DNA of 44,413 nt from positions 1 through 44,413 of the forward strand of contig CAZXEM010000003.1 in the NCBI GenBank assembly GCA_964639875.1, given 5' to 3'. This DNA is from an uncultured Methanosarcinales archaeon (GTDB lineage: Archaea > Nanobdellota > Nanobdellia > Woesearchaeales > GW2011-AR9). Made by a program: the position numbers and the translations under genes. Of this stretch, positions 7,337 through 37,046 are shown one piece after another. The notes below the pieces were generated by a model. The model saw nothing but the letters and a program-made list of their open reading frames with translations. It did no database searches and was not told where the DNA came from. How positions within the stretch are numbered: the stretch's first letter is position 1; every line of letters starts with the position of its first letter.

Positions 7337-8281
7337 CTAAATCCCTTTCAGCACTTCTTTCGGATCTTTTCCATCAAACAAGATTTCATGTAATCCGGTT
7401 ATCAAAGGCAGCTTTAATCCTGTTTTTTCTTTCAGACCCATCGCTTCTTTTAATGTTGTAACACCTTCAGCAACCATTGCCATTTCATCAATAACTTCTT
7501 TAAGTGGACGGCCTTTACCAACTTCTACACCAACAGAACGGTTTCTTGAATGAGGACTAGTAGAAGTTACAATCATATCACCAATTCCAGCTAAACCATA
7601 GAAAGTTTCTTCTTTTCCACCTAAAGCCACGCCAACATTTTTAATCTCTTCCAGACCACGCGTCATGATATAGGCTTTAGCGTTATCTCCTAAGCCCATC
7701 CCATCTAAGACACCAACAAACACAGCAAGAATATTTTTCAAAGCAGCAGCAACTTGCACGCCAATAAGGTCATCAGTTAAATCAATTTTAAGATTATCAG
7801 AAACAAACACTTTCTTAAGATCTTCTCTTCCTGTACCACCGGCAAGAACAATCCCTGAATACATTTCTTTACAAACTTCTTCTGCATGTGTTGGCCCATA
7901 TAAACAATAAACTTCTCCAGAAACTTTTTCTTTAACCAGATCTGTTAAAAACTTTAAATCTGGACCGAACCCTTTTGAACAAATTACAATTGCTTGATCC
8001 TCAACAAACTCCTTAGCTTGTCCAATAGTCTTCTCAACATGATTAGATGGAACCACTAACAAAACCAATTCAAAATCAACTAAAACATCTTCTATTTTAT
8101 GAGAAACAAAAATATTTTCTGGCAATTTTGCTTCAGGAAGTAATTTACAAATTCTTTGTTCCTGCATTTCTTTTGCTTGTTCTTCAAAGAATTCCCAAAC
8201 TTTTACAGAATGACCATTATTGTTTAAATGTACAGCTAACGCTGTACCCCAACTTCCTCCACCTAAAATTGCGATTTTCAT
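7337..8281 (-). CDS. gpsA: NAD(P)H-dependent sn-glycerol-3-phosphate dehydrogenase (GpsA type)
   Basis: N-terminal Rossmann MKIAILGGGSWGTALA. 314 aa, colinear with GpsA (central ...SKG..., C-terminal helical domain with AEG/P...). Confidence 0.85.
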   Translation of the reverse strand: MKIAILGGGSWGTALAVHLNNNGHSVKVWEFFEEQAKEMQEQRICKLLPEAKLPENIFVSHKIEDVLVDFELVLLVVPSNHVEKTIGQAKEFVEDQAIVICSKGFGPDLKFLTDLVKEKVSGEVYCLYGPTHAEEVCKEMYSGIVLAGGTGREDLKKVFVSDNLKIDLTDDLIGVQVAAALKNILAVFVGVLDGMGLGDNAKAYIMTRGLEEIKNVGVALGGKEETFYGLAGIGDMIVTSTSPHSRNRSVGVEVGKGRPLKEVIDEMAMVAEGVTTLKEAMGLKEKTGLKLPLITGLHEILFDGKDPKEVLKGI

Positions 8282-13962: not shown

Positions 13963-14901
13963 TTAATCAGCGTAGGAATCGTCATCTTTTCCTTTTTTTG
14001 CATTTATTTCTTCTTTAATTAATAATGCTTTGTATTCTTTATTTAATGTTTCTTTTTCTTTAATTAATGAATAAATTTTCTTATAAATTTCTTCTGACTC
14101 AGTCCAAGTTTTGGTTACCTCTTTACTTGAATTAGATACCGTTTCATCAATTTTAATCTCTTTCTCAAAAAAATCTAGTAATTCTTCTAAGTGTTTCTTA
14201 AAATCTTTCCAACTTTTTTTGTGTTCATGAAGACTCTTTTCTAAATCTTCAGATTCTTTAAACAACTCATCAAAAGTATTGTGGATACTTTTACTAAGGT
14301 CAAAACGTTTTTGTTCAATAACTTCGTTTTCTTCTAATAACCCTAAATGTTTAGAAATAAGTTCTTGTTTTTTTTTAATAATCTCTTCTTTTTTAGATTG
14401 ATCAATTTCATTTCCTTTTTTAGATGAACGTCTTAAATTTATATATTCTTTTTTTAACAATCTTTTTTCATTGTCAAGTTCTTTTTTAAGCTTAGGGATT
14501 CTATCTTTTATTTCTTTTTTAATAGATTCAAGTGTATCTTTATAAATTTCTTTTGACTTTTTAAGATAATATTCAACCTCAGAAAACTTACTTAAAACAT
14601 AATTAAAATTTTTCTGTGCATTTTTAACATGATCATGATTTTTATCTTTTAAATACAATTCAATAGAAGCAATAAAAGATTTTAAAAAATGAATGATTTG
14701 TCTATTAATCACCATTATTTCTAAATCATCATGCGTAGCCTTTCTGTTACGTTTAGCATCTTTTTTTTCAGAAATATATTCGTTAAAATAATCATTCCAT
14801 TCTTTTTTATTAATTTTCTCTTCCTTACGTTCTATATTAGCATCCCTTCTTAAAGGACTAAACAAATACTTAAAGATTTTTCCAATAAATCCTAAAACCA
14901 T
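13963..14901 (-). CDS. hypothetical Lys/Glu-rich coiled-coil protein
   Basis: 312-aa ORF that is highly charged and heptad-like throughout. No catalytic motif. Confidence 0.5.
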   Translation of the reverse strand: MVLGFIGKIFKYLFSPLRRDANIERKEEKINKKEWNDYFNEYISEKKDAKRNRKATHDDLEIMVINRQIIHFLKSFIASIELYLKDKNHDHVKNAQKNFNYVLSKFSEVEYYLKKSKEIYKDTLESIKKEIKDRIPKLKKELDNEKRLLKKEYINLRRSSKKGNEIDQSKKEEIIKKKQELISKHLGLLEENEVIEQKRFDLSKSIHNTFDELFKESEDLEKSLHEHKKSWKDFKKHLEELLDFFEKEIKIDETVSNSSKEVTKTWTESEEIYKKIYSLIKEKETLNKEYKALLIKEEINAKKGKDDDSYAD

Positions 14902-14932: not shown

Positions 14933-15529
14933 CTAACTCAATTCTATAACCATCCCTTCCCAGCCAGGATTGATTACGGGAGTTTTACCAATTTTACTGT
15001 TAGCGCCAGCAGTTTCATGAATGTGACCACAAATTGCTAATTTTGGTTTTATTCTTTCAATGAATTTACGAAAATCTTTATTACCAACATGATGATCTTC
15101 TAATAAATCAGCGTCAGTACTAAAAGGAGGTCCGTGAGTTACTAAAATGATTTTATCGTTTTTGTATTTGCCGTACCATTCACGAGAAAGTTTTCTAAAC
15201 TCTTGATCCTGAACAGAAAAACCGCCCTCACCATAACCTAAAAAGACATAATTCCCAATCCGGAAAGCTTTATGATTAAAGTTAATGCAATTCGGATAAT
15301 CTGCAAGAACTTCTTTAAACATACGATCACTTTCATGATTACCAGGAATAATGTAAACTTTTTTCCCGATGTTATTAAATTGTTTAAGAACGTAACGTAA
15401 ACTTCTCCCAAATTCTGTTAAATCACCAGCACAAACAACAAATTCTATGTCGTTCTGACTAGCTCTCTTAACTAGTTCTTTAAGAGCTTTTTTATCTTCA
15501 TGTAAATCTACAAAAGTTAAAAATTTCAT
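14933..15529 (-). CDS. calcineurin-like metallophosphoesterase
   Basis: Motifs VDLHE, GDLTEFG, GNHE, THGPP and GHIHE occur in canonical order. Confidence 0.8.
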   Translation of the reverse strand: MKFLTFVDLHEDKKALKELVKRASQNDIEFVVCAGDLTEFGRSLRYVLKQFNNIGKKVYIIPGNHESDRMFKEVLADYPNCINFNHKAFRIGNYVFLGYGEGGFSVQDQEFRKLSREWYGKYKNDKIILVTHGPPFSTDADLLEDHHVGNKDFRKFIERIKPKLAICGHIHETAGANSKIGKTPVINPGWEGMVIELS

Positions 15530-15557: not shown

Positions 15558-16373
15558 TTATTTTTCTTTTAATTCTTCTTTGTTGTCAGCAGTATTTTTT
15601 TCAGTTTCTGCATCTACTTTCTCAATATCCTCAGTTTCTGGAACAGTTTCAGCTTTTTCTTCAGTAGGAGCTTCTTCTTTCTTTTCCTCTGCTGGAGTTT
15701 TAGCTTCTTCTTTCTCAACTGCCGCTGCAGGAGTTGTTTCCTTTTTCTCTTCTAGAGTTTTATCGTCAACAACAACTTCTTCCTGAATGATTCCTTTTTC
15801 TTGCAATTTCATTGCTCGAACAGTAACTTCTTTAAGAGGATAGATTTTATCTAAATTCTTTTTAAGAGCGAATATTAATCTTCTATTCACTAAAAGAGAA
15901 ATTAAACTTTCAAAACTATTCTTTTTGAATTCTTCATTTAATAATTCTTGTAATCTCTTTCTTAAACCAGTGTGTTTAGATTTTTGTGTTTTACCTCGAG
16001 AAACCATTAAACTTTTAACAATGATTTTTTTCCCGCCTTTAGTAGTCAAAATACAATAATCATCAATCCGGTTAGTGTTCTTTCTTACAACTCTTTTAAT
16101 GTAAGCAGGAGTTAATTCGTAACTAATTATAGATGTATTAAGAGTGTTACCATTAACATTTGTAATTTGAAAACCAATATAAACATTCTGAGCTTTAATA
16201 TTTCCAGTTAAATCTTTAAGGTTAACTTTAAGTTTTCTTCCTACAGCTTTTTCAGGATCAAAAAGATAACTTTCACCAATTTCTTTTTGAGCGAAAATTT
16301 TAGGAGCAATAACTTTATACCATAATTTCTTTTTTACTTTAATTTTACTGACTTTTTTCTTTGCTTTAGCCAT
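15558..16373 (-). CDS. rps3ae: 30S ribosomal protein eS1 (S3Ae) with about 75-aa acidic low-complexity C-terminal extension
   Basis: The N-terminus KKKLWYKVIAPKIF... and the core are colinear with S3Ae. The tail EEKKETTPAAAVEKEEAKTPAEEKKEEAPTEEK... is additional. Confidence 0.9.
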   Translation of the reverse strand: MAKAKKKVSKIKVKKKLWYKVIAPKIFAQKEIGESYLFDPEKAVGRKLKVNLKDLTGNIKAQNVYIGFQITNVNGNTLNTSIISYELTPAYIKRVVRKNTNRIDDYCILTTKGGKKIIVKSLMVSRGKTQKSKHTGLRKRLQELLNEEFKKNSFESLISLLVNRRLIFALKKNLDKIYPLKEVTVRAMKLQEKGIIQEEVVVDDKTLEEKKETTPAAAVEKEEAKTPAEEKKEEAPTEEKAETVPETEDIEKVDAETEKNTADNKEELKEK

Positions 16374-16777: not shown

Positions 16778-17560
16778 ATGCAAACAATAGGAATAATAGG
16801 AGGATTAGGACCAGAAGCAACACAACTTCTTTTTAAAAAGATTGTAGATAAAACCCCTGCAGAATATGATCAAGAACACCTTCCACTGATGATTTTTAAT
16901 AATCCTCAAATTCCTGACAGAACTAAAGCCATTCTTTATAATGGAAAAAGTCCTGTGCCAGAATTAATTAGAAGTGCGAGAATCCTAGAGATATCAGGCG
17001 CAGATTTTATTGTTATCCCATGTAATACGGCCCATTGTTTTATTAAAGAAATTGAGAATAAAGTTTCAATACCATTTATTAATATGATTGAAGCAACGGC
17101 CCAAGATATTAAAAGAAAATATCCATTAGTAAAAAAAATCGGACTTTTAGCAACTTCAGGTACAGTGAGTAGCAAAATTTACCATCAAAAATTTTCTAAA
17201 ATAGATATGGAGATTATTACCCCTTCCGAAGATGAACAAGAAAATATTGTTATGGAAAGTGTCTATGGTAAAAAAGGAATTAAAGCAGGAGTTCATGATT
17301 ATCCTGGTAAACAGTTAGAAAGGGCAGGTCGATCATTAATCAATCGAGGAGCAGAATTAATAATTACTGGATGTACAGAAATATCCATTGTGGTAAAACA
17401 AGAAAATGTTGATTACCCAATTGTTGATCCGTTAACAATTTTAGCAGAAAAATCAGTACAAACAGCATTAATCCCAAAAACTTCTATTGACTATGCCCAC
17501 TACAGGTTAGAAAATCTCCCTGAAAAAGAAGTTTTAGAAATCCTTGAAGAGGAAGAATAA
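16778..17560 (+). CDS. aspartate racemase (Asp/Glu/hydantoin racemase family)
   Basis: I use the ATG at 16778 (MQTIGIIGGLGPEAT). Two catalytic Cys motifs are present, IPCNTAH and TGCTE. Confidence 0.85.
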   Translation: MQTIGIIGGLGPEATQLLFKKIVDKTPAEYDQEHLPLMIFNNPQIPDRTKAILYNGKSPVPELIRSARILEISGADFIVIPCNTAHCFIKEIENKVSIPFINMIEATAQDIKRKYPLVKKIGLLATSGTVSSKIYHQKFSKIDMEIITPSEDEQENIVMESVYGKKGIKAGVHDYPGKQLERAGRSLINRGAELIITGCTEISIVVKQENVDYPIVDPLTILAEKSVQTALIPKTSIDYAHYRLENLPEKEVLEILEEEE

Positions 17561-18439
17561 ATGGTAAAAGTTGCAATTTTACATCAAGATATAGAGTGGT
17601 CAGAAAAACAATTCCAAGAAAGTTTTTCTAAAAAAAATATTGAGGTTGAGATGTATGATGTTAGAACCACTTCGCTAGATGAATTATTAAAATACGATTT
17701 AGTGATCAATAGAGTTTATGCTAGTGTAGCTAACAGAAATTACCCAGATAATTTAAAAACATTAGAACTCTTAGAAGAACTTGAAAATAATAATGTTTTA
17801 TGTTTAAATTCTGCATTAACTACCAAAGTTGATTATTTTAAAGATTATGCCGCAATGATGCAAGAAGAAGCAGGGTTAATAACTCCAAAGACAAGAATAT
17901 TTAGAAATGCAGAAGAAGCAAAGGAAATTTCTGAAGAATTAGGTTTTCCATTAATTATGAAAAGGAATACAGGTGGAAGAGCAGTAGATTTAAGAAAAAT
18001 TGATAACGAATCAGAATTAGACCAGTATTTATCTACCCATAAAAATCATTATGGTGGAGATTATATTTTACAAGAATTTTTGACAAGCAGTTTACCTTAT
18101 GATTATCGAGTTACAATTATCGAAGACCAATTAGCTTTTGCTTACAAGAGAAGTTTATTATCAGTAAATGAGGATGAAGATCCTTGGCTTGCAAGTGTTT
18201 CAAAAGGTTCAAGTAGAGAATTATGTACTCTGCCCGAAGAAGTACTTGATGTTGCATTGAAAGGAGCAAAAAGTATCAAAGCATTTTATGATTCAATGGA
18301 CATTATTGTTACGAATGAAGGACCAGCAATCATTGAACATAACCCAACCCCAAATTATAGTTGCACTGCTGAAGAAATTGAAAAAAGCGAACAGTTCATT
18401 GATGAGGTAACAGAAATAATTACCCACTATATTAATTGA
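17561..18439 (+). CDS. ATP-grasp ligase, RimK/LysX family-like
   Basis: Starts immediately after the racemase stop. The N-terminal pre-ATP-grasp domain (KVAILHQDIEWSEKQF) is colinear with LysX/RimK. Central GFPLIMKRNTGGRAVDL and a C-terminal ...IIEHNPTPN. Confidence 0.75.
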   Translation: MVKVAILHQDIEWSEKQFQESFSKKNIEVEMYDVRTTSLDELLKYDLVINRVYASVANRNYPDNLKTLELLEELENNNVLCLNSALTTKVDYFKDYAAMMQEEAGLITPKTRIFRNAEEAKEISEELGFPLIMKRNTGGRAVDLRKIDNESELDQYLSTHKNHYGGDYILQEFLTSSLPYDYRVTIIEDQLAFAYKRSLLSVNEDEDPWLASVSKGSSRELCTLPEEVLDVALKGAKSIKAFYDSMDIIVTNEGPAIIEHNPTPNYSCTAEEIEKSEQFIDEVTEIITHYIN

Positions 18440-18455
18440 AAGAGAAAATAGATAA

Positions 18456-19430
18456 ATGGACAAAATGATAAAATTAGGATTTGTTGCAGAACTGGATTTA
18501 AGAGAAGAGAACCAAAATTATCCCGTAACTAAAAAACAAATCCAAGAATATTTCGGCCCATTATCAGAACAGGGCCTAGACACATATATCTTTAGTTGGA
18601 AAAGTTTAACAGATCAAGGAACAGTAAATGAAGCATATTCAATAAATGAAGGAAAAACAAAAGAGTTAGACCTTAGTAAAGAGTTAGATATAGTTTTTAC
18701 AAAACAATTAGGCAATATCGCTAATTGCCCTCAAGAATTTCTTGATTATTTAACTTACCTGGGCAATGTTAATACCATTAAAGTCAATGAACCGGACAGG
18801 ATGAGATCAAATTTAGACAAAAACTATTTGATAAATTTACAAAAAGAAGGTTTTCCAGTAGTACCAACAGTTAATGTTTATAACCGCAAATTGGAAGAAC
18901 TTTTAGAGTATGATTTTGGAATAGAACATGAAGATATAATTTTAAAACCGAGAATATTTGGAGAATCAGGAAATGGAATTGTTAAATTATCTGATTTCAA
19001 AGGCGATGAAGAAGAATTCAACAGATATATAGACCAGAATCAACCAGTAATTGCTCAACCGATGATGAAAGAAATATTTCAAGGAGAAAAATCTTTAATT
19101 TTTTTAGGTGAAGAATTTTCTCACGGAATAACTAAAAAATCCACCACAGACAATTATAAAATTAACATTTCTTTCGGTACCGAATATGCCCGTTATTTTC
19201 CGAAACAAAATGAACTGGAGATGGCCCATAATATCATTGAACATTATAATGATCAGAATCAAATGACAAGAATAGATTTTTTAGATACTAAAGAAGGACC
19301 AAGAATTATGGAAGTTGAAAGGATAAATCCATCAACGTATACAACTCAAGTTGGCTTGGCCCACCATTTTTGTGATAACTTAGCAAAATTTATTAAAAGG
19401 GTTTACACAGAACAAAAAATTAATTATTAA
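18456..19430 (+). CDS. second ATP-grasp-like ligase (divergent)
   Basis: Central EGFPVVPT...IILKPRIFGESGNGIV (Lys/Gly-loop pattern) and C-terminal RIDFLDT..GPRIMEVERINPS (Mg/ATP acidic residues). The N-terminal domain is unassigned. Confidence 0.6.
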   Translation: MDKMIKLGFVAELDLREENQNYPVTKKQIQEYFGPLSEQGLDTYIFSWKSLTDQGTVNEAYSINEGKTKELDLSKELDIVFTKQLGNIANCPQEFLDYLTYLGNVNTIKVNEPDRMRSNLDKNYLINLQKEGFPVVPTVNVYNRKLEELLEYDFGIEHEDIILKPRIFGESGNGIVKLSDFKGDEEEFNRYIDQNQPVIAQPMMKEIFQGEKSLIFLGEEFSHGITKKSTTDNYKINISFGTEYARYFPKQNELEMAHNIIEHYNDQNQMTRIDFLDTKEGPRIMEVERINPSTYTTQVGLAHHFCDNLAKFIKRVYTEQKINY

Positions 19431-20277
19431 TTTTATTATAATTCTTACTAAACAAAGAAAGTAACTGTTGATATTTTTTATATCCTTCAGCAATGTTAGA
19501 AGAAGAAAATGTAACTTCTCGTGGATTTGAATTATTATGTTTAACAGAATCAAGATGTAAATCAATATGCGAATCAACATCTTCTAATAAATAAGCATAA
19601 GGAACTAAAACTTTCCAATGAAAAATTTGTGCTTTGAAATCAGCCCGATTAATAGTATCAACATTTTTTAAAGTGGATGCTAAACTTTCTTTAATTTCGT
19701 TAAAGACAACGTCTTTATCTTTAAGTTGAGATTGATGTTGACTCAAAGAAACTTTAGTAGTTACAGTAGGAAGGTTAGGAATTAACTGTTTTATTTCTTC
19801 AACAGCATTATTAGTACCTGAAAGGAAAATCAGTTTAACACCATTATCTTTTGCCACTAAGACATTTAATCCACTTTCTCCAAATTCAACATTATTAATA
19901 AAAACCCCAGATATTAATTTTGTACTATTGGTGTGGGCACAATAAGAATAATGTTGGTTAGCTTTTCCATGATAACCTAAGAAAATACAATAATCAACTT
20001 GTTCAATCCCTTCAAGCATTGAAGTTCTTCGTTTATGTTTGTTAACAAAATTAATCTTTGAATTTAATAATTCAGGAAGAACATTCTTTCCTGACCCGTG
20101 GGCATCAACCAAATAAACTTCTTCAACGCCATTATTAAAACAACAATTAGCAACCACATTAATTTCTTCAGTCATCAGAAGACGGGCATCTTGATATTCT
20201 TGACTAGAAGTGTTTAGAAAACTGCCACCAGTAATTCCAGTAACTCCTTCAATGTCAGCAGAAATCAATATTTTCAT
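19420..20277 (-). CDS. dppA: D-aminopeptidase, peptidase family M55 (DppA-like)
   Basis: The N-terminus MKILISADIEGVTGI...ARLLMTEEINV closely parallels Bacillus DppA (MKLYMSVDMEGISG...LIMTEEAN). The ORF track begins two codons earlier, at 20283. Confidence 0.75.
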   Translation of the reverse strand: MKILISADIEGVTGITGGSFLNTSSQEYQDARLLMTEEINVVANCCFNNGVEEVYLVDAHGSGKNVLPELLNSKINFVNKHKRRTSMLEGIEQVDYCIFLGYHGKANQHYSYCAHTNSTKLISGVFINNVEFGESGLNVLVAKDNGVKLIFLSGTNNAVEEIKQLIPNLPTVTTKVSLSQHQSQLKDKDVVFNEIKESLASTLKNVDTINRADFKAQIFHWKVLVPYAYLLEDVDSHIDLHLDSVKHNNSNPREVTFSSSNIAEGYKKYQQLLSLFSKNYNKINN

Positions 20278-20335
20278 CCCCATACTAAAATCTACAAGCG
20301 AAATTAATTTATATAACTTTCCATTTACAAGATAA

Positions 20336-20941
20336 ATGGAACCTTATTTACAAACAACCGTGTTTACTACAGCTGCTTCCTCTTTATTAACTATTTTACA
20401 TTACTTTAATCCAGAAATCAAATTAAGTAAAGATAATGAGTTCAAGATCTGGCAAAGTACAGTTATTTTGCCAACAAGAGCATCTTCAATTTTTGCCCTA
20501 GCTGATTATGCATTGAAAGAAAAATTAAATCTTCAAGTGATTGTAGAAAGTAAAAATTATGAATTCCCTGATTATCGGTTTTATCGTTATAAAAAAGAGG
20601 ATGTTGAAAACGCAACATTTTCATCAAGATTATATCTGAAAAATGCTAAAAAAAACAATTTGGAAATAGTAGAAAGAAAGATTACTTTAGATGACGTTAA
20701 AGAATTATTACTGGAAAATGTTTTGTTGTTAAGAATTAATACTAAACCCATTCGTGGAGAAAAAAGGAACACCTCAAACTTTATTGTTTTACATGGTTAT
20801 GATGGAAATTATTTTCATATTATTGATCCACAATCAGGAGGATTGTCAATTTCTGAAGAAATAATGGAAGAATCATTTTCCACTTTAGAAACTAAAAAAT
20901 ATCGTGACCATCAAATGATTGTGTTTAAGAAAAATCTTTAA
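20336..20941 (+). CDS. peptidase C39-like fold protein without any cysteine
   Basis: Has the Q-x5-[T]AASSLLTILHYF N-terminal helix pattern and VLHGYDGNYFHIIDP (His/Asp pattern) of C39/BtrH-like papain-fold domains. The protein contains no Cys. TATA (TTTATATAAC) lies about 26 nt upstream. Confidence 0.45.
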   Translation: MEPYLQTTVFTTAASSLLTILHYFNPEIKLSKDNEFKIWQSTVILPTRASSIFALADYALKEKLNLQVIVESKNYEFPDYRFYRYKKEDVENATFSSRLYLKNAKKNNLEIVERKITLDDVKELLLENVLLLRINTKPIRGEKRNTSNFIVLHGYDGNYFHIIDPQSGGLSISEEIMEESFSTLETKKYRDHQMIVFKKNL

Positions 20942-21212
20942 TCTTCCCTTGATTAACTTTAATTTTTAACAATTCTTGTTCAGAAAGTTCTTTTTTCTTT
21001 AACCAATAAGTCCCTTTGTAAGAATCTTTTGCAAGATAATTAAAATTCACTAATTCTCTTCTAAAAAGAACATAATCATCAACATTAAAAGATTGAATGA
21101 TTTCATTAACTTCTTGCTCAGTATAAACTTTTTCATCTTCAAACTTTTGCATAATCTGAGTAAGAACTGTTTGCTTTTCTAAATCGTTAGAAGGCAGAAT
21201 CATTAATTTCAT
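20925..21212 (-). CDS. DUF2087-like small protein
   Basis: The stretch YTEQEVNEIIQSFNVDDYVLFRRELVNFNYLAKDSYKGTYW matches the DUF2087 pattern (E.EVN...D...LRR.LV....L.R...G..Y). ATGA overlap with the upstream GH3 gene. Confidence 0.6.
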   Translation of the reverse strand: MKLMILPSNDLEKQTVLTQIMQKFEDEKVYTEQEVNEIIQSFNVDDYVLFRRELVNFNYLAKDSYKGTYWLKKKELSEQELLKIKVNQGKIKDFS

Positions 21213-22306
21213 TTTACATTAAACCCCTTCGCTTCAAGAATCTTTTTTACCGAATTATCAATTTGTTCTTCAGGAATGTCCCCATTAAGAACAGCTTCTT
21301 TAACAGTTTCAATCATGTGAAAAATTTCGTTAGGATCTTCGTTAAAATTAATAATTAAATCGTTACCTGCACTAAACACTGCCCGGTACAAATCTTCTTT
21401 TGAATCAAAAAATTTCTGTAAACCTAACATCATTGTATCATCAGTAATTATTAAACCGTCAAATTTTTCTTTTAAAGTGTCTACTGCTTTCTTGGAAACT
21501 ACTGCGGGCTTACCTTCAGAATTAACTTCACCATAAGAAATAACATGAGTTACCATCATCGATTTAACATCACCTTTATCACCTAAATAATTGTAAGGAT
21601 AAATATCCTCTAGAACAATTTCTGCAGTTACCATATTTTTATGAGGATCTTTGATCACTAGAGCTTTGCCTGGATAATGTTTAGCAGTAGCAATTACTCC
21701 TTGACTTTGTAATCCCAAAATATAAGCTTCAGCTAATAGAGTAATCTCTTCTTCAGTACCAGGAAAAGTTCGGCAGTTCCATATTTCATCATCTAAATCT
21801 ACAACGGGCGCATAATTAATAGTAAATCCTAAATCGTGAAGGAACTTACCTTCATCACTACCTTTTTGAAAAGCTTCACCTACATTTTTAACTTCACTCA
21901 CTGAATAAAAATCTTTAAAGTTAGCAAACGGATTCCAACATCCTTCAAGATCAACAGTAACAAAGAATGGGATGACCATATCTTCCTGAAAATCGTTGAT
22001 TGTGTTTTTGAACAGTTCTTCATCTTTCATTGCAAAAAGATGGATCCCACCAATTTGCATATTTTTCCAAACATTCAAATTGTGTCTACCGCCATGGACA
22101 ATTACCATTTGAGCAATTTTCTGTTCTAAAGTTAAATCGTTAAGATTGACAGTGTTGTCTTGGATAGGGATAGGATTTTGTTCTGGAATTAACCAACCTT
22201 TAGCTTTAGCTACGTTCAACGTTCCGAGAACAAGAACTAAAACAATCAGAATTAGGAAAACTATTTCACTTCTTGTCCTTCCCTTTTTGTTATTATTTTT
22301 GACCAT
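21209..22306 (-). CDS. membrane-anchored glycoside hydrolase family 3 (NagZ-like beta-N-acetylhexosaminidase) domain protein
   Basis: N-terminal TM anchor (IVFLILIVLVLVLGTL). GH3 motifs KHYPGK...DPH, MMVTHV and ITDDTMM. Confidence 0.8.
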   Translation of the reverse strand: MVKNNNKKGRTRSEIVFLILIVLVLVLGTLNVAKAKGWLIPEQNPIPIQDNTVNLNDLTLEQKIAQMVIVHGGRHNLNVWKNMQIGGIHLFAMKDEELFKNTINDFQEDMVIPFFVTVDLEGCWNPFANFKDFYSVSEVKNVGEAFQKGSDEGKFLHDLGFTINYAPVVDLDDEIWNCRTFPGTEEEITLLAEAYILGLQSQGVIATAKHYPGKALVIKDPHKNMVTAEIVLEDIYPYNYLGDKGDVKSMMVTHVISYGEVNSEGKPAVVSKKAVDTLKEKFDGLIITDDTMMLGLQKFFDSKEDLYRAVFSAGNDLIINFNEDPNEIFHMIETVKEAVLNGDIPEEQIDNSVKKILEAKGFNVK

Positions 22307-22313
22307 AGTGTTT

Positions 22314-22658
22314 TTACCAAATTTCTAAATTACGACAATAATTGTAAGCTTTCTTGTTAAGTAAATATTTTAAATCATTTCCCGTTTGACATGACCAATC
22401 AGTTTTTTCAAGTTTATCTTTTTTACATTCTAACTGTTTTCTAGCTTCTACACAACAAGAATCAAGATTGTTCCACTCGTTAAAATTATTTTTATAATTA
22501 ACAATACAAAGTGGATTATCTTGGTCAAACAAATATTGTGCCTGCCCAATTGTTGGTAATTGAACATTAAACAAATTTAAAGTAAGTAATAAAGCAAGAA
22601 AAACTAGTGAAATGTTCGCTATCACCATCACTTTTTTGTTTTCACTATACTTAACCAT
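22314..22658 (-). CDS. small membrane-anchored Cys-rich protein
   Basis: 114 aa with an N-terminal TM helix and 6 Cys in the ectodomain. TATA-like box about 27 nt upstream. Confidence 0.5.
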   Translation of the reverse strand: MVKYSENKKVMVIANISLVFLALLLTLNLFNVQLPTIGQAQYLFDQDNPLCIVNYKNNFNEWNNLDSCCVEARKQLECKKDKLEKTDWSCQTGNDLKYLLNKKAYNYCRNLEIW

Positions 22659-22762: not shown

Positions 22763-24550
22763 ATGATAATCAGAAAAGTCCTTTTAACTGTAGTTGGTCA
22801 TGTTGATCATGGTAAAACCTCTTTATTAGATCAGATTAGAAGTTCGGTTGTAACTGCAGGAGAAGCAGGAGCAATAACTCAAGCAATAGGAGTTTCCACA
22901 ATCCCTATTGAAACTATTAAAAAAATATGCGGTCCGTTACTTGACGCGTTTAAAGGTAATTTAACTGTTCCCGGCTTACTTGCAATTGATACGCCGGGCC
23001 ACGCAGCATTCACTTCATTAAGAAAACGTGGCGGTTCTTTAGCGGATATTGCAATCTTAATCGTAGACATTAATGAAGGATTAAAACCGCAAACAATTGA
23101 ATCGATTGAAATTCTTAAAAATAATAAAGTTCCGTTCATTATCGCTGCAAACAAAATCGACTTAATCCATGGTTGGAATTATGATGATAAAAAGTTACTT
23201 ATGCAAAACGTAGCAGAAATGAACACAGAAATTCAAGGACAATTTGAAAAGAAAATGTATGAATTGGTAGGAAAGATGCACGAATTTGAATTTCAAGCAG
23301 AACGGTTTGATCGAGTAGAAGATTATACTAAACAAGTTGCGATAGTACCAATATCTGCAAAAACTGGTCAAGGCATTCCAGAATTATTAATGGTCCTTAC
23401 TGGACTTGCCCAAAAATTTCTTGAAAAAAAGTTAGAAATTGAAAATACTGGAAATTGTAAAGGAACAATCCTTGAAGTTAAAGAAGAGAAAGGGTTAGGG
23501 ACAACAATCGATACAATAATTTACAACGGACAATTAAAAGTTAACGACACTTTGGTTATCGGCGGAATTGATGAACCTATCGTTGTTAAAATTAGAGCAC
23601 TTCTTGAACCTGCAGACCTTTGCGATATGCGAGAAAAGAAAAGTAGATTCAAAAATGTTAAAGAAGTTTCTGCGGCAACAGGTGTAAAAATTTCTGCTCC
23701 TGGTTTAGAAAGTGCAATGGCCGGCATGCCAGTAAGAAGTTGTTCTGGAAAACCTGAAGAAGTTGAAGAGATGAAAAAAGAAGTTCGGGAAGAAGTTGGC
23801 GAAATTGTTATGGAATGTGATGAATGTATTGGAGTAATAATTAAAGCTGACACTATCGGCGGCTTGGAAGCGTTAAGAAACTTATTAGAAGAAAAACAAA
23901 TTCCCATTTCTTCAGCATCATTAGGAGATTTATCTAAAAAAGATTTTTCTAAACTGGAATCATTAAGAGAGAAAGAAGAATTCAGTGCAGTAATTCTTGG
24001 ATTTAATGTTAAAATTTCTGATGAGTTAGAAGAGTATGCAAAAAGTAAGAAATTTAAATTAATTACTAACGATGTGATTTACAAGATTATTGAAGATTAT
24101 GAAGAATATCAAAAAAAACTTAGACATGAGATAGAAGTTAAAGAACTTTCAAGACTGGTTAGACCTTGTAAATTTGCAATTCTTAAAGGTTATACTTTCC
24201 GTCAAAGTAATCCCGCAATTGTTGGAGTGGAAATAGAAATTGGCAGAATAAAAACTGGCGACCCAGTAATGAATATGCAAGGTAAACAAATCAGTTCTGT
24301 CAAAAGTATGCAAGAAGGAAAAGATTCGGTAAGTTTAGCTGAGCAAGGTAAACAAATTGCGATGAGTTTGGATGGAGTTACTGTTGGTAGACAAATTGAA
24401 GAAGGAGATTTTTTGTATACAGGTGTTCCTGAAGAAGATTTCAAAAAATTGAAAGAATTAAAAAGTAACCTTACAAAAATGGAAATTGAAGTTCTTAAAG
24501 AAGTAGCAGAAATTAAACGTAAAGATAACCCAGTCTGGGGAGTTGGCTAA
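22763..24550 (+). CDS. infB: translation initiation factor aIF5B (IF2 homologue)
   Basis: GTPase motifs GHVDHGKTS, DTPGH and NKID. 595 aa with the archaeal aIF5B architecture. TATA-like AAATTTAAAAAAG about 27 nt upstream. Confidence 0.95.
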   Translation: MIIRKVLLTVVGHVDHGKTSLLDQIRSSVVTAGEAGAITQAIGVSTIPIETIKKICGPLLDAFKGNLTVPGLLAIDTPGHAAFTSLRKRGGSLADIAILIVDINEGLKPQTIESIEILKNNKVPFIIAANKIDLIHGWNYDDKKLLMQNVAEMNTEIQGQFEKKMYELVGKMHEFEFQAERFDRVEDYTKQVAIVPISAKTGQGIPELLMVLTGLAQKFLEKKLEIENTGNCKGTILEVKEEKGLGTTIDTIIYNGQLKVNDTLVIGGIDEPIVVKIRALLEPADLCDMREKKSRFKNVKEVSAATGVKISAPGLESAMAGMPVRSCSGKPEEVEEMKKEVREEVGEIVMECDECIGVIIKADTIGGLEALRNLLEEKQIPISSASLGDLSKKDFSKLESLREKEEFSAVILGFNVKISDELEEYAKSKKFKLITNDVIYKIIEDYEEYQKKLRHEIEVKELSRLVRPCKFAILKGYTFRQSNPAIVGVEIEIGRIKTGDPVMNMQGKQISSVKSMQEGKDSVSLAEQGKQIAMSLDGVTVGRQIEEGDFLYTGVPEEDFKKLKELKSNLTKMEIEVLKEVAEIKRKDNPVWGVG

Positions 24551-24777: not shown

Positions 24778-24879
24778 CGTTATACAAGTAAACAATATAT
24801 GTTATATATATTTTACGTTACTCCAGATTATATGTTTAAAGCAATAAAGTTTAAATAAAACCTTCTTTTCAAGCTAATC

Positions 24880-25044
24880 ATGGCTAAATGTAACATTTGT
24901 GGAAATAAAATTGCAGAATTATTTCTAGGAAAATTGAAAGGTACAATTATCAAAAAGGAAGGCAAGAATAAACAATACACTATTTGTTTTGAATGTCAAA
25001 AGAAATTTCCGAGTAAAGAAGAATTGTTAAAACAGATTAAATAA
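24880..25044 (+). CDS. 54-aa zinc-ribbon protein (not in ORF track)
   Basis: Translation: MAKCNICGNKIAELFLGKLKGTIIKKEGKNKQYTICFECQKKFPSKEELLKQIK. Two CxxC pairs. TATA-like AGTTTAAATAAAAC about 25 nt upstream of the ATG. Confidence 0.55.
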   Translation: MAKCNICGNKIAELFLGKLKGTIIKKEGKNKQYTICFECQKKFPSKEELLKQIK

Positions 25045-32469: not shown

Positions 32470-32540
32470 AGATAAAAAAAGAAAAAAAGAAAAAATTGGA
32501 GGAAGATAGTTAAGATAACTTACTTAATTAATAGTAAGTT
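32470..32540 (-). terminator. hairpin plus oligo-T terminator of the S-layer-like gene
   Basis: An 8-bp stem AACTTACT/AGTAAGTT (32517-32524 / 32533-32540) encloses the stop codon. On the transcript it is followed by T-runs (TTTTTTCTTTTTTTCTTTTTTTATC). Confidence 0.5.
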
Positions 32541-33856
32541 TTCTCTTCGTCTTCTTCGTCGTCTCTCTTAAGTCTACTGAAACCAATAATCAAACCAATG
32601 ATAACTAATAATACCACTAAGATGATTAATGCGATTTCTAAACCGTTTCTTAAGCTAAAACCACTTTCAACAGTAGCGCCAGTAACAGTTGCTTTTAGGC
32701 TGATTGTTTCTAATACTTCAGCACCGGACTGAACAGCTAGACTAGTAACATGTTCTCCAACAGCAGCAGATGCGCTAGGAGTTACGTCTACATAGACTAC
32801 TTTATTCTTTCCAGGTTCTAAAACAACTAAATTGTCACTTACAGTTGCAGTTGCCCAATCGCCAGTAACTGTTTCTAACAAATATGCTTTGGAACTAGTT
32901 CCTGCATTTGTTAAAGCAATAGCGTATTTAGCAGTAGTTCCTGCAGCTACAGTTTGACTTTCTGGACCAACAGCTAAAACTAACTTGTTTTCACTTGTTT
33001 GAAACATTTCGTTACTTAAAACGTTAATTTTGTAGCTCTTAGTAACTGTTTCTCTTAAGTCATCGTATTTAACAGTAACTTTAACTTCATACTCACCTTC
33101 AACAGCAGTTGCTGGAAGAGGTAAGAACATTTCTGGAACATCTTCATAATCTACATTATTATCTTCTGTTTCCACAACATCAACAAACTCAGTTGCACTC
33201 ACGCCTAAAGCGGGTACTGCAACAGTAACTTTAACGTCTTTCTCAGTCTTGTCACCGAAGTTTTCAAGTAAAACAGTAGTTAATAATGAACGTCCTGCTT
33301 TAACTGAAGTTCCAGGTGAAAATACAACGTCAGCGATATCTACGCCGTGTCGAGTTGGTTCAACGTTAAGCTTTACAATCTGCGTTACAGGTGCAGAATT
33401 ACTATTGTAAATATTTAGATGTAACCAATAAACTTGCTTTTCTAATTTCTTTGGTAAGTCAACGCTTAACTTCACAGTTTTCTTAGTATTTCCTGCCATG
33501 TCAAAAACATGTGTTGAATCACTTAATGATTCGTAGTCAGAATACTCGTATCCTTTGATCTTTGCATCAACTTCAATATCTTCTACAGCTTCACCAGTCT
33601 GTAGTCGAACTTTAATATCTAATGTTTGACCTTCGTCAACACTAATAGAAGGCACAGCAACATCACCGATGCCAATGTCTTCACCAATTATGTTTCCTTC
33701 TTCATCAACTATATTAATTACGTTAGTTCCTAAGTCAACAGAATCTCCGTTAACTTCTACTTCCCATTCAAAATTGTCTACACTAAGCGCACTAACCATT
33801 GAAACGGTCAATAAGGCCAATACAAACAAAACCATTAAACTCAAAATTTTTCTCAT
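32528..33856 (-). CDS. S-layer-like surface protein with C-terminal TM anchor and acidic tail
   Basis: I use the ATG at 33856 with GGAGG about 8 nt upstream; the track start at 33871 is TTG. Signal peptide, repeated beta-domains with N-x-G motifs (LLENFGDKT, ALTNAGTSS), and a C-terminal IALIILVVLLVIIGLIIGF + RLKRDDEEDEE. Confidence 0.7.
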   Translation of the reverse strand: MRKILSLMVLFVLALLTVSMVSALSVDNFEWEVEVNGDSVDLGTNVINIVDEEGNIIGEDIGIGDVAVPSISVDEGQTLDIKVRLQTGEAVEDIEVDAKIKGYEYSDYESLSDSTHVFDMAGNTKKTVKLSVDLPKKLEKQVYWLHLNIYNSNSAPVTQIVKLNVEPTRHGVDIADVVFSPGTSVKAGRSLLTTVLLENFGDKTEKDVKVTVAVPALGVSATEFVDVVETEDNNVDYEDVPEMFLPLPATAVEGEYEVKVTVKYDDLRETVTKSYKINVLSNEMFQTSENKLVLAVGPESQTVAAGTTAKYAIALTNAGTSSKAYLLETVTGDWATATVSDNLVVLEPGKNKVVYVDVTPSASAAVGEHVTSLAVQSGAEVLETISLKATVTGATVESGFSLRNGLEIALIILVVLLVIIGLIIGFSRLKRDDEEDEEKTYY

Positions 33857-34004
33857 TTTAACTTCCTCCAATTTCCACGTTTTTTTCGAAGATTGTGTTT
33901 TTTTTTAATTTAATCTTCTAAATTTGTGGTCCTATATAAACTTTTCTATTCTTTTAGTATTCAAGAGTAGCTACATTATGTAGCCATTCTCAAATGGTTG
34001 TCAT

Positions 34005-37000
34005 TCAATAGATAGTTAAGAGCCTATATGTTGACTCATGATACTCACTATTGGTAACAGTTACTTTGACAAGATAATCTCCTGGTTGAGCATTGTAAGG
34101 CATCTGTAAAACCAAGTTCTTGCTTTTTTGTTGTCCTGCCTTTAAGTCAAACTCTCCACCGGATTTTTTCAATCCTAAATCATAAACTAAAGCGGTAACT
34201 TTAAGGTCCTTCAACTTCTTATCACCATTATTTTTCATGTTAACTTGTAACGAAACATGCTCACCAGCGTTAGCAACTTCGGTACTCAACTTTACTGTTG
34301 CCAATTTAATGTTCTTGTAAGCTTCGCTAACACCAATAGTAAACTGCTGTTGAGCATACAACTGGCCGTCTGAGACGGTAATTAACACTTTTGCTTTCCC
34401 ATTATCAGTTGGTTCCCATTCAACCAATCCACTCTCACCAATAGTCATCCCTTCTGGTGCTTTAGAAAGGTAATAAATTAGTTTTTCTCCTTCTGGATCT
34501 GCTGCAACTAACTGATAACTGTAATCTTCATCTTCAGTAACGGTTGTTACTGGTTGTGAATAAATTACGGGTGCTTGATTAACAATAACAATTGTACACA
34601 AATCACCAATTCCATCACTGTTAGAATCTAACTGATCAGGATTAGCAGTTAAAGGACAATTGTCAACTTCATCACAAACACCATCATTATCAGCGTCTGA
34701 TAAACAAGGAATAACTTCACAAGCATCGCCAACACCATTATCATCACTGTCTAATTGATCAAGATTAGCAGTTAAAGGACAATTGTCATCTTCATCACAA
34801 ACACCATCGTTATCTGTGTCTACTAAACAAACAATTTCTTCACAAGCGTCACCAATTCCATCCATGTTAGAATCTAACTGGTCAGGGTTAGCAGTTAAAG
34901 GACAGTTATCATCTTCATCACAAACACCATCTTCATCGGTGTCTAATAAACAAGGTGTATCCAAAACCAAAATAGTGATTTTAACTTTTTTCGAAGAATT
35001 TGCTCCATGTTCGTCTTTTGCAACAAAAGTAACAAAGTAATCCCCCGCTTCACCAACATAAGTTTTCCACTGGAAAACATAAACATTTTCTTTTGTTGGG
35101 TGAGGACCTAAAACAATGTTTTTATTTAAAGCAATCCTTGAAGCTAATTCTAAAGTAATTTCATCACCATCTGAATCAGTTACTCCAATTTCAAACTCAA
35201 GACTATTACCTTCAGTAACTTCTTGATTTGGAAGGGGAGCAATCCGAGGTGCGTGATTAACAACAACAATTGTACAAGCGTCACCAATCCCATCCATGTT
35301 AGAATCTAACTGGTCAGGGTTAGCAGTTAAAGGACAGTTATCAAATTCATCACAAATACCATCGCCATCAGTATCACCATAAATATCTAAACAAGATAAT
35401 TCACAAGATTCAGTAACTGAAAATTGATAAGTTTCACTTACACTAGTTAATCCATCACTGATTACAACATCAAATTCGTACTTTCCACTATCATCACAAT
35501 CTGAAGTACCAGTAATTAGTAATTCATTTCCTGATTGTTGAGAGGAAACCCATTCTTCTGGTAAACCATTTACAACAAAGCTAAGTTCATCTTCAGCATC
35601 TCCATCAGTAGCAGTAACAGTTAATACAAGTGATTCACCTTCATCAACTATATCATTACCATTAATACTTAATGCAGGCATTTGGTTAACGTCATCAACT
35701 TTAACAAGAATAGTTTTAGTTGCATACAAGTTACCATCTGAAGCAGTAAAGACAAGTGTAACACTTTGACTTAACTTAGGATGAGTTACGTAAGTATAAT
35801 CTGGTTGCCAGGAAAATAAATAATTATTTTTGGCTGTTGCCGCTAAACTATATGGTTCTGAAAATTCAGTAGTAAAACAGTAAATACCGAAAAGAAGACA
35901 TTTCTTAACACCAACAGTTAAAGTATTGAATTCATCATCTTCAATTTCGAACTGTAAAGCCATACTTCCGCCTTCAACTAAATTGTAATTACCACCAATG
36001 TCATCTATGAACTCAGGAGCTTGGTTTACAGGCGCTTCAGGACATCCATTATTTGTTGCAGGCCCAGGTTCATTTGGACATAAATCCTGGTCATTAGGAG
36101 TACCATCTCCATCTGAATCAGAATCACAAACATCACCAATACCATCATTATCAGTATCTGCTTGGTTTGTATTTGCAATTAAAGGACAATTATCTTTCCA
36201 ATTGTAGATTCCGTCGTTATCTGCATCAGAGTCACAAGCGTCTCCCCAGCCATCTCCATCAACATTAGATTGATCAGGATTAAAAGTCATTGCGCAATTA
36301 TCATCTTCATCCATAATAACGTCATTGTCATCATCAGGATCACAAACATCGCCAACGCCATCATTTTCATTATCTGCCTGATTTGTGTTAGGAATGAACT
36401 GACAATTATCATTTACATCTAAGATGCCATCATTATCATCATCTAAATCACAAGCATTTCCTTCACCATCATTATCAGTGTCAGTTTGAAGAATGTTTTC
36501 ATCATTAATACAATTATCACAAACATCGCCATAACCATCATTGTCAGCATCTTCTTGATTAGGATTTTCGTTAGCGTAACAATTATCTTCATAATCAAGA
36601 ACGCCATCACAATCATAATCAGAACTACCTTCTCCACAAAGATCACCAACAACATCTAAGTTTAGTGAATGTGTTTGTGCACTAGTAGCGCTGTACTTAT
36701 CATCTAAAGTTATGGTAATAGTATATTCTCCCATTTTGTGATTATAATTAGCTGGACTAATAACTAAATTATAAGGAGAAGTAATTTGTTGATCATTTAA
36801 CAAAACCTTAATGTTAGCACCGTCAATTAATTTTACGGTTGCATAAATTGGATCTGCGGAAGCAAATAATCCAGTAGTGAATGAAACAGAGTCACCATTA
36901 CTGATCGTAGTACTTGTTCCTCCATTATCCCATTGCAGTTCCCCAGAAGGCCAAATTAAAGCCAGGGCAGCAGGAGATAATAAAAACATAAGCACTACAA

Positions 37001-37046
37001 TTAAAACAATTGTTTTATACGTAGTTTTCATTTTATGTAACCTCAT
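34005..37046 (-). CDS. large secreted adhesin with thrombospondin type-3 (Ca-binding) repeats, Ig/cadherin-like domains and a C-terminal CARDB-like domain
   Basis: More than 15 D-x-D-x-DG-x-x-D-x-x-D-N-C-P...N-x-x-Q repeats (e.g. DTDNDGIGDVCDSDSDGDG). NQAP...-initiated Ig-like modules and a signal peptide. ATGA overlap with the upstream gene. An alternative ATG at 37031 has GAGGT 8 nt upstream. Confidence 0.8.
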   Translation of the reverse strand: MRLHKMKTTYKTIVLIVVLMFLLSPAALALIWPSGELQWDNGGTSTTISNGDSVSFTTGLFASADPIYATVKLIDGANIKVLLNDQQITSPYNLVISPANYNHKMGEYTITITLDDKYSATSAQTHSLNLDVVGDLCGEGSSDYDCDGVLDYEDNCYANENPNQEDADNDGYGDVCDNCINDENILQTDTDNDGEGNACDLDDDNDGILDVNDNCQFIPNTNQADNENDGVGDVCDPDDDNDVIMDEDDNCAMTFNPDQSNVDGDGWGDACDSDADNDGIYNWKDNCPLIANTNQADTDNDGIGDVCDSDSDGDGTPNDQDLCPNEPGPATNNGCPEAPVNQAPEFIDDIGGNYNLVEGGSMALQFEIEDDEFNTLTVGVKKCLLFGIYCFTTEFSEPYSLAATAKNNYLFSWQPDYTYVTHPKLSQSVTLVFTASDGNLYATKTILVKVDDVNQMPALSINGNDIVDEGESLVLTVTATDGDAEDELSFVVNGLPEEWVSSQQSGNELLITGTSDCDDSGKYEFDVVISDGLTSVSETYQFSVTESCELSCLDIYGDTDGDGICDEFDNCPLTANPDQLDSNMDGIGDACTIVVVNHAPRIAPLPNQEVTEGNSLEFEIGVTDSDGDEITLELASRIALNKNIVLGPHPTKENVYVFQWKTYVGEAGDYFVTFVAKDEHGANSSKKVKITILVLDTPCLLDTDEDGVCDEDDNCPLTANPDQLDSNMDGIGDACEEIVCLVDTDNDGVCDEDDNCPLTANLDQLDSDDNGVGDACEVIPCLSDADNDGVCDEVDNCPLTANPDQLDSNSDGIGDLCTIVIVNQAPVIYSQPVTTVTEDEDYSYQLVAADPEGEKLIYYLSKAPEGMTIGESGLVEWEPTDNGKAKVLITVSDGQLYAQQQFTIGVSEAYKNIKLATVKLSTEVANAGEHVSLQVNMKNNGDKKLKDLKVTALVYDLGLKKSGGEFDLKAGQQKSKNLVLQMPYNAQPGDYLVKVTVTNSEYHESTYRLLTIY
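34596..34964 (-). repeat. three tandem 123-nt (41-aa) repeat units inside the adhesin gene
   Basis: Units start at 34596, 34719 and 34842. Each encodes C-L-x-D-x-D-x-DGVCDE-x-DNCPLTAN-x-DQLDS...G-x-GD-x-C. Confidence 0.85.
35274..35343 (-). repeat. dispersed 70-nt copy, 69/70 identical to 34842-34911
   Basis: Hand alignment shows a single T/C difference (caatTcc vs caatCcc). Confidence 0.85.

Follow-up and report, generated by a model that had tools for sequence, protein, structure and literature searches.

The DNA analysed here, a stretch of 44,413 nucleotides (nt) deposited as an uncultured Methanosarcinales archaeon (contig CAZXEM010000003.1, assembly GCA_964639875.1) and hereafter called the window, carries an aspartate racemase gene followed by genes for two ATP-grasp ligases, an M55-type D-aminopeptidase and a C39-like papain-fold protein. 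We propose, with moderate confidence, that this segment, 16778-20941, is the form taken in this lineage by a conserved cassette for making, without the ribosome, a short D-aspartate (D-Asp)-containing peptide or peptide tail. The five genes are:

16778-17560, plus strand: aspartate racemase of the pyridoxal-phosphate-independent two-cysteine type, 260 amino acids, first gene of the operon
17561-18439, plus strand: AG1, a RimK/LysX-related ATP-grasp amidoligase, the invariant partner of the racemase
18456-19430, plus strand: AG2, a divergent second ATP-grasp ligase of 'family B' (GSH-S_ATP, 30.7 bits)
19420-20283, minus strand: M55 (DppA-type) D-aminopeptidase, convergent with the ligase operon
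20336-20941, plus strand: DUF3335/C39-like papain-fold protein, 201 amino acids (PF11814, 46 bits)

A preliminary description of this DNA had placed these genes, together with a Cys-rich protein, a glycoside hydrolase of family GH3 and a DUF2087 protein, in one block. The list of open reading frames (ORFs) and profile searches bear out all eight genes, with the families, coordinates and orientations that had been given. The block had been divided into three transcription units, but by orientation there are four: racemase-AG1-AG2 (plus), M55 (minus), the C39-like gene (plus) and Cys-rich-GH3-DUF2087 (minus). The comparison with other genomes reported below shows that the block is in fact two things, a conserved ligase cassette and a set of lineage-specific GH3 neighbours.

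Conservation of the racemase-ligase core

The neighbourhoods of AG1 homologues were gathered through six homologue look-ups, a scan of the GTDB species genomes and a scan of JGI metagenomes, and the neighbouring ORFs were labelled with hidden Markov models (HMMs) built from the window and the first loci. All counts are over 55 AG1 sequences non-redundant at 90% identity, which belong mostly to DPANN archaea and to at least one bacterium of the candidate phyla radiation (CPR).

A racemase gene stands directly upstream of AG1, on the same strand, in 35 of the 44 loci where this could be assessed. The racemase stop and the AG1 start are spaced by -4, -1, 0 or +1 nt in most loci, and in the window the AG1 start codon lies at the base right after the racemase stop. 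This linkage is far beyond chance. Directly downstream of AG1, a further ligase is found in 35 of 46 loci, belonging to family B (19 loci), to family C (12), to a GSP-synthetase-like type (3) or to a YheCD-like type (1). An S66 LD-carboxypeptidase gene occurs within four genes in 14 of 36 loci, DUF3335 in 4 of 36, and M55 in 1 of 36, in this lineage only. The real unit is thus a racemase, AG1, a second ATP-grasp ligase and an exopeptidase, with or without the catalytically degenerate C39-like protein (pseudo-C39). The preliminary description had considered the co-localised enzyme set together and had asked whether its linkage is kept in relatives: the racemase, the ligases and an exopeptidase do recur, sometimes with pseudo-C39, whereas the GH3, DUF2087, Cys-rich and M55 genes accompany them only in relatives at least 86% identical.

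Five operon layouts recur:

Type I: racemase-AG1-B, then M55 (window), a C45 N-terminal nucleophile (Ntn) hydrolase/acyltransferase (L017) or a cyanophycin-synthetase-like ligase (L033)
Type II: racemase-AG1-C-S66, with or without pseudo-C39
Type III: racemase-AG1-B-C-S66
Type IV: racemase-AG1-GSP-synthetase-like ligase-C, with or without S66; no racemase was detected in L030
Type V: racemase-AG1-YheCD-like ligase-alanine racemase-C39_2-pseudo-C39

The accessory genes of these other loci, namely S66, C45, the cyanophycin-synthetase-like ligase, alanine racemase and C39_2, all make or break peptide bonds. At one further locus (L035:9220-14409, the same as L085) two radical SAM enzymes are encoded after racemase, AG1 and a GSP-synthetase-like ligase; a SPASM domain is present in one of them, and the other resembles lysine-2,3-aminomutase. 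This locus comes from a true CPR bacterium, because a DnaG-type primase is present, while L026, labelled Patescibacteria, is archaeal, since it encodes the archaea-specific editing domain of threonyl-tRNA synthetase. In six loci (L013, L015, L016, L019, L022 and L028; for example L019:8164-9159, minus strand) a tandem Lrp/AsnC-type regulator of about 320 amino acids is divergent from the racemase, which suggests amino-acid-responsive control of the operon in those loci; the regulator is not found in the window.

The host of the window is a DPANN-type archaeon, because the window contains archaeal information-processing genes and the AG1 homologues come mostly from metagenome-assembled genomes (MAGs) labelled Woesearchaeota, Pacearchaeota or Aenigmatarchaeota. 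The former include ribosomal protein S3Ae (15558-16373) and aIF5B (22763-24550), and a Cbf5/TruB protein with a PUA domain and an ABCE1/RLI homologue are also encoded. Public taxon labels look wrong for the MAGs of L011, L015, L022, L028 and L026; contigs named 'uncultured Methanosarcinales' carry the DPANN-type operon, and the AG1 of L011 is 86% identical to that of the window.

The racemase and its coupled ligase

The racemase matches the characterised aspartate racemase of P. horikoshii (1jfl) over its full length (E=8e-70), and the alignment retains both catalytic cysteine motifs, PCNTAH and GCTE (Cys82 and Cys194 of PhAspR). It scores 150 bits against PF01177 (cut-off 31) and 236.5 bits against TIGR00035 (cut-off 93.1), and its start at 16778 agrees with the homologues. 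As the protein also passes the model of cysteate racemase (see below), an acidic substrate can be predicted with certainty, and aspartate would be the most likely among the acidic candidates.

AG1 scores 56 bits against the RimK domain, and falls below every curated RimK, LysX, MptN and CofF cut-off in the profile search. The figures are 93 bits for the RimK family TIGR00768 (cut-off 143.4), 24 for the S6-glutamate ligase equivalog (331), 81 for MptN (350), 77 for LysX TIGR02144 (275.6), 47 for CofF (300) and 37 for GshB (272). The best sequence matches in the PDB are LysX (3vpd) and RimK (5zct). The homologues form 84 clusters, a distinct family of proteins of about 300 amino acids, and in 31 homologues K134, a GGR loop, D247, E259 and N261 are invariant; we take these to be the ATP- and Mg-binding residues from what is known of the family. 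From its sequence, AG1 is classed as an ATP-grasp enzyme outside any curated family.

Placement of AG1 within the LysX/ArgX clades, which the preliminary description had named as an outcome that would speak against its proposal, is not what we find, the LysX score being 77 bits against a cut-off of 275.6. Moreover, neither LysW nor the LysY, LysZ, LysJ and LysK genes were detected in the window. A regular-expression search of the window for a LysW-type carrier (a zinc ribbon with an acidic C-terminus) gave nothing suitable; the only small zinc-ribbon ORF, 24859-25041, ends KQIK, and none of the small ORFs is acidic at its C-terminus.

AG2 and the further ligases

AG2 is more divergent in sequence. 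A sequence search of the PDB with it returned zero matches, its score against DcsG (52.6 bits) lies under the cut-off for that family, and a word-indexed homologue search retrieved only five proteins. Following this sparse result, membership of families B and C was assigned with our own HMMs on the fetched loci. The AlphaFold2 (AF2) model of AG2 has a mean predicted local distance difference test (pLDDT) score of 85 and a predicted template-modelling score (pTM) of 0.83, and the nearest folds returned by Foldseek are DcsG (6jil), RimK (5zct), LysX/ArgX (5k2m) and GshB (1gsa). As judged from this model, AG2 is clearly an ATP-grasp enzyme and belongs with RimK, GshB and DcsG. The ligases of families B and C are all of the ATP-grasp type and divergent in sequence, with only a weak relationship between the two families and to AG1; the cyanophycin-synthetase-like third ligase of L033 scores 184 bits. 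Even in the most conservative case, AG1, B and C are new subfamilies of ATP-grasp ligases.

Predicted D-specific exopeptidases: M55 in the window, S66 elsewhere

The M55 protein scores 191.6 bits against PF04951 (cut-off 25) and aligns with B. subtilis DppA (1hi9) at E=2e-25. It keeps the SxDxEG, DxH, GYH and GE(S/L)GLN motifs, in which we presume the metal ligands of DppA to lie. Against the Bacillus DppA equivalog NF058634 it reaches 132.6 bits, under the cut-off of 430. The gene accompanies the operon in no relatives but those with 86% identity or more. An independent link between M55 and the ligases was sought outside the lineage and rejected: the nearest M55 homologues there (31-36% identity) lie in unrelated, bacterial-looking gene contexts, and so give it no support.

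In the window M55 fills the slot that is held by S66 in 14 of 36 loci. Known relatives of these exopeptidases cleave off terminal D-residues. S66 scores 110 bits against the LdcA model, and the conserved G.SD, E and GH motifs of the S66 proteins agree with a catalytic triad that is still intact. In these 14 loci S66 always follows a family C ligase, and this strict association suggests that it acts on the residue added by that ligase. A product with an N-terminal D-residue would fit an M55 aminopeptidase in the window, where family C and S66 are lacking.

The C39-like protein as a predicted pseudo-peptidase

The C39-like protein belongs to DUF3335 (46 bits against PF11814, cut-off 25) and is also detected by PF03412 (26 bits, cut-off 22). 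Its AF2 model (pLDDT 96) is papain-like, and its nearest folds include the pseudomurein endoisopeptidase PeiR, the phytochelatin-synthase-like Alr0975, which cleaves glutathione, and the C39 domains of PCAT and LahT, all with modest template-modelling scores near 0.5. When aligned to the LahT150 protease domain (6mpz), Thr12 occupies the position of the catalytic cysteine and Asn148 that of the histidine. Since both catalytic residues are lost, the protein is predicted to be a pseudo-peptidase and not a cysteine peptidase, and it is probably a peptide- or acceptor-binding module.

The same two residues are also lost in all nine cluster-linked C39-like homologues. Among about 30 closest representatives most lack both catalytic residues and three keep both; Q..C and H are retained by the majority of the distant members. 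In an exhaustive search, 1.84 billion representatives yielded no more than 78 related clusters. Even on the most cautious view, a pseudo-peptidase clade of DUF3335 is thereby defined. DUF3335 genes accompany the operon in the 4 of 36 loci mentioned above.

Elsewhere in DUF3335, fusions occur to GNAT, AstE/AspA deacylase, methyltransferase or nucleotidyltransferase domains. The fusions to GNAT and to AstE/AspA deacylases place the family among amidoligase-type systems. This agrees with a published report in which DUF3335 is connected with GNAT domains, themselves possible peptide ligases (PMC10318531).

In one sub-clade a tiny, conserved acidic ORF of about 30 amino acids (MRKK..KLLQN..EEVD..AM) lies between pseudo-C39 and ftsZ, upstream of the latter (L006:11358-11456, L008:12347-12439 and L012:13255-13416). 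We considered it as a general precursor or carrier and rejected it, as it is absent from the window and from other loci.

Proposed function of the cassette

The preliminary description had offered, as one of two explanations, the synthesis of a D-Asp peptide or tag by amidoligases together with a trimming peptidase. This is the explanation that we favour, in view of the homology to a characterised aspartate racemase, the coupling of racemase and AG1 in about 80% of loci, the additional ligases and the D-specific exopeptidase. By close homology to the characterised enzyme, the racemase would convert L-Asp to D-Asp. AG1 would then ligate D-Asp to a partner at the expense of ATP, by way of an acyl-phosphate, as ATP-grasp chemistry and the invariant gene coupling lead one to expect, and AG2 would add a further residue. 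In other lineages the extension step may be carried out by family B and/or family C ligases, or by GSP-synthetase-like, YheCD-like or cyanophycin-synthetase-like ligases. As ligase content varies between lineages, the length and composition of the product probably vary as well. A D-stereospecific exopeptidase, M55 here and S66 LD-carboxypeptidase elsewhere, could trim, recycle or limit the product, and the catalytically dead C39-like protein would most likely bind the peptide or its acceptor and not cleave it. We infer the use of D-Asp as substrate, the order of ligation and the roles of the peptidases; our moderate confidence extends to a peptide and to a tail alike.

Several points weigh against this reading. 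The loci are phylogenetically related, so that counts such as 35 of 44 overstate the number of independent events, and marker checks show that the labels of several MAGs cannot be trusted. A racemase is missing beside about 20% of AG1 homologues, including all the proteobacterial ones, which lie in other gene contexts. The racemase also passes the cut-off of the cysteate racemase CuyB equivalog (240 bits against 190), and its substrate could for this reason be another acidic amino acid. As for M55, it is found near the operon in this lineage only, one of the 36 non-redundant loci; it lies on a different strand from pseudo-C39, and its proposed functional link would follow from its position and from the analogy to S66.

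More speculatively, and with low probability, the product could be a D-Asp peptide that acts at the envelope or at the division site of DPANN archaea, which lack murein. The operon would then be a minimal cluster reminiscent of 'division and cell wall' clusters, and would have remained beside ftsZ in several lineages as its set of ligases diversified. Or else the peptide could serve as a D-aminoacyl tag, put on a division or ribosomal protein and removed again, with the dead C39-like domain as the reader and M55 or S66 as the eraser.

Peptides containing D-amino acids are a hallmark of bacterial walls and of secondary metabolism. To our knowledge, the aspartate racemases of archaea have been known without an established downstream use. 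In the operon such a racemase has ligases and D-specific peptidases as dedicated and conserved partners, and this within the archaeal radiation that is least understood, as well as in at least one CPR bacterium. Three or four small soluble enzymes would suffice to test what D-Asp is for in archaea. Were the product indeed part of the envelope or of the division machinery, or a tag on proteins, archaeal cell biology would gain something new, with a bearing on the lifestyle of ultra-small symbionts. The preliminary description had not recognised the combination as a described archaeal pathway; likewise, we found no description of the operon, in DPANN or elsewhere, in the literature searched, which did not cover the 2009 amidoligase survey (Iyer et al.), and the statement holds within that limit.

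Alternative explanations

Tailing of a protein is an unlikely alternative that nevertheless draws on the same enzymes. Here AG1, with or without the other ligases, would add D-Asp or other residues to the C-terminus or to an acidic side chain of a protein, the peptidase would reverse the mark and the dead C39-like protein would recognise the target, for which the neighbourhood offers FtsZ or a ribosomal protein as candidates. RimK puts a poly-alpha-L-glutamate tail on ribosomal protein S6, and tubulin-modifying ligases, ATP-grasp enzymes too, extend tubulin in a similar way; the closest characterised relatives of AG1, RimK and LysX/ArgX, work on protein C-termini. Inactive C39-like domains are known as substrate binders, as in the C39-like domain (CLD) of HlyB.

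The gene neighbourhood can be read in the same direction. In 8 of 30 assessable loci (L004, L006, L008, L009, L012, L017, L025 and L030) ftsZ is found within seven genes, one to three genes past the end of the racemase-ligase operon (for example L006:11528-12601). Three arrangements occur, across operon types: on the same strand, on the same strand after the tiny ORF, and on the opposite strand after a nitroreductase. The operon often stands among ribosomal protein genes; S3Ae, which has a long acidic tail, is the divergent neighbour in the window, and L35Ae and L10e adjoin the operon in another synteny group. However, ribosomal genes commonly neighbour anything in very small genomes, and ftsZ is not adjacent to the operon in the window.

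Enzymes of the RimK and LysX types use acidic tails, on S6 and LysW. The cluster-linked FtsZ proteins end in ...GIDFV or ...GLDDLS, with no acidic tails, and the FtsZ C-terminus was rejected as a RimK-like substrate on these grounds; the window contains no LysW-like carrier either. Furthermore, the GshB-like, GSP-synthetase-like and cyanophycin-synthetase-like ligases fit the chemistry of small molecules or polymers better than that of protein tails.

Salvage or editing of murein fragments, the other explanation of the preliminary description, is poorly supported and, in our view, rather improbable. It would have the exported GH3 remove N-acetylglucosamine (GlcNAc) from host muropeptides, M55 or S66 trim D-Ala-type termini, the racemase interconvert the released D-amino acids and the ligases rebuild peptides. 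Two to four ATP-dependent ligases coupled to a racemase are needless for catabolism, the ligases being biosynthetic enzymes, and the racemase is of the Asp type, not of the Ala or Glu type. M55 (DppA) and S66 (LdcA/YkfA) are exopeptidases of bacterial murein-peptide recycling, and the GH3 resembles the secreted muropeptide GlcNAc-ases YbbD and LpqI; yet GH3 and M55, the most murein-like members of the block, are not conserved partners of the operon, and the C39-like protein is predicted to be unable to act as a cysteine peptidase. At least one operon variant does belong to a true CPR bacterium, and Woesearchaeota and Pacearchaeota have been reported to have extracellular murein lytic-transglycosylase-like proteins and, maybe, bacterial hosts (PMC8204110). 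Against this, the 44-kb window has no Mur or Mpl ligase, MraY, MurG, gamma-D-Glu endopeptidase, epimerase or peptide-uptake gene by the operon, and no peptidoglycan precursor genes (Mur ligases, MraY, MurG) were found among the Pfam-annotated neighbours of five related loci.

A self-protected antimetabolite is very improbable. The ligases would make a toxic di- or tripeptide containing a D-amino acid, comparable to products of L-amino-acid ligases such as bacilysin, rhizocticin and tabtoxin, and S66 (MccF-like) or M55 would provide self-immunity. The modular and variable ligase content and the radical SAM accessories of the CPR variant are in keeping with this, as is the fact that S66 includes immunity enzymes of the MccF type. 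No exporter is consistently linked to the operon, however, and its position among core housekeeping genes of strongly reduced genomes, with vertical conservation across DPANN orders, is unusual for secondary metabolism.

Finally, that AG1 serves a known pathway (LysX/ArgX with LysW, cofactor glutamyl ligation of the MptN/CofF type, or GshB), the rest being unrelated housekeeping genes, is extremely improbable, since its weak full-length similarities to the MptN, LysX, CofF and GshB models stay far under the equivalog cut-offs (81/350, 77/275.6, 47/300 and 37/272) and an invariant racemase coupling has no role there.

Comparison with known systems

The D-Asp cassette proposed here has its nearest parallel in bacteria, where the aspartate racemase RacD and the ATP-grasp D-Asp ligase Asl(fm) are paired in Enterococcus faecium, Lactococcus lactis and bifidobacteria (PMC13631041). 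Both systems pair a racemase gene with an ATP-grasp ligase gene, and share the predicted logic of making D-Asp and then ligating it. The acceptor of Asl(fm) is UDP-MurNAc-pentapeptide, whereas no genes of the Mur pathway are seen in the window or among the Pfam-annotated neighbours of the five related loci; unlike the bacterial pair, the archaeal operon contains one to three additional ligases and a D-specific exopeptidase. AG1 is a RimK/LysX-like protein of about 290 amino acids, and its likeness to Asl(fm) is drawn from gene pairing and logic, not from sequence; a model of that ligase was not among the family hits listed in the profile search.

RimK, as in the rimABK operon of Pseudomonas, is among the closest neighbours of AG1 and AG2 in sequence and structure, and there too an ATP-grasp enzyme that extends a C-terminus is encoded with a peptidase. 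RimK systems have no racemase, however, and AG1 scores 93 bits against the cut-off of 143.4. The LysX/ArgX-LysW systems supply the best PDB match of AG1 (3vpd) and share its fold and size, but differ by score (77 against 275.6 bits) and by LysW and LysZ, LysY, LysJ and LysK, which the window lacks. The dpp-ykf genes of B. subtilis (DppA of M55, YkfA of S66, the epimerase YkfB and the endopeptidase YkfC) combine both exopeptidase families and act on peptides with D-amino acids; that system is catabolic and without ligases, whereas in the archaeal operon the ligases are the core, and transporter, epimerase and endopeptidase are absent.

The second and third ligases of the operon resemble GshB, GspS and the G domain of CphA, which likewise carry out stepwise ATP-dependent extension of a peptide or polymer. 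The matches stay far under the cut-offs of these families; the operon differs further in having a racemase and in lacking both GshA and the M domain of CphA. Inactive C39-like domains of the HlyB type share with pseudo-C39 the papain/C39 fold, the replacement of Cys and His and probably the role of a binding module; pseudo-C39 differs in being a stand-alone protein of 201 amino acids from the DUF3335 clade, not fused to an ABC transporter.

GH3 operon and other features of the window

The remaining three genes of the block are:

20925-21212, minus strand: DUF2087 protein (PF09860, 66 bits), adjacent to the conserved module and not part of it
21209-22306, minus strand: single-domain GH3 protein, N-terminally anchored or exported, NagZ/YbbD-like beta-N-acetylhexosaminidase (PF00933, 132 bits)
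22314-22658, minus strand: small Cys-rich protein with an N-terminal anchor, encoded at the head of the GH3 operon

They are found by the operon only in fully syntenic relatives with at least 86% AG1 identity, and are best regarded as a unit of their own, concerned with the surface or with glycan breakdown. The GH3 sequence shows an N-terminal hydrophobic anchor. It scores 85.3 bits against the NagZ equivalog NF003740, under the cut-off of 207, but nearly all its best PDB relatives are beta-N-acetylglucosaminidases (YbbD/NagZ, LpqI), and the earlier assignment as NagZ-like, as opposed to a plain beta-glucosidase, therefore appears sound at the sequence level. The Asp-His motif KH(F/I)PG(H/L)Gx4D(S/T)H reads KHYPGKALVIKDPH and aligns to KHFPGHGDTDVDSH of YbbD; it departs from the motif at three positions but keeps the Asp and the His, and the ITDD nucleophile region is aligned. 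The Cys-rich protein has an N-terminal hydrophobic segment and several cysteines, and no family match.

The window is AT-rich, with about 30% GC. Scans of it for tRNAs and against Rfam gave zero matches, as did the PADLOC defence models against all eight block proteins.

A calcineurin-like metallophosphoesterase (14933-15529, minus strand) is encoded two genes upstream of the operon. Another is found directly after S66 at L019:12776-13360, and its presence in both loci may be a coincidence. Between Cbf5 and the metallophosphoesterase of the window lies a Lys/Glu-rich ORF of 312 amino acids without family match (13963-14901, minus strand). The relatives L001 and L011, which are 86% identical and syntenic in other respects, lack this ORF; it is therefore a recent insertion or a fast-evolving gene.

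A permease of the Trp/Tyr permease family (40502-41659, minus strand), about 20 kb from the operon, is the sole candidate for an amino-acid or peptide transporter in the window. An NAD-dependent glycerol-3-phosphate dehydrogenase of the bacterial type, with GpsA domains, is encoded at 7337-8281 (minus strand) in this archaeal window; its product would presumably be a lipid backbone of bacterial-type stereochemistry. Lastly, a large predicted surface protein with thrombospondin type 3 repeats and Ig, PKD and He_PIG domains (34005-37046, minus strand) is followed by a protein with an NPCBM-associated domain (32528-33871, minus strand), and the two may form an adhesion locus.

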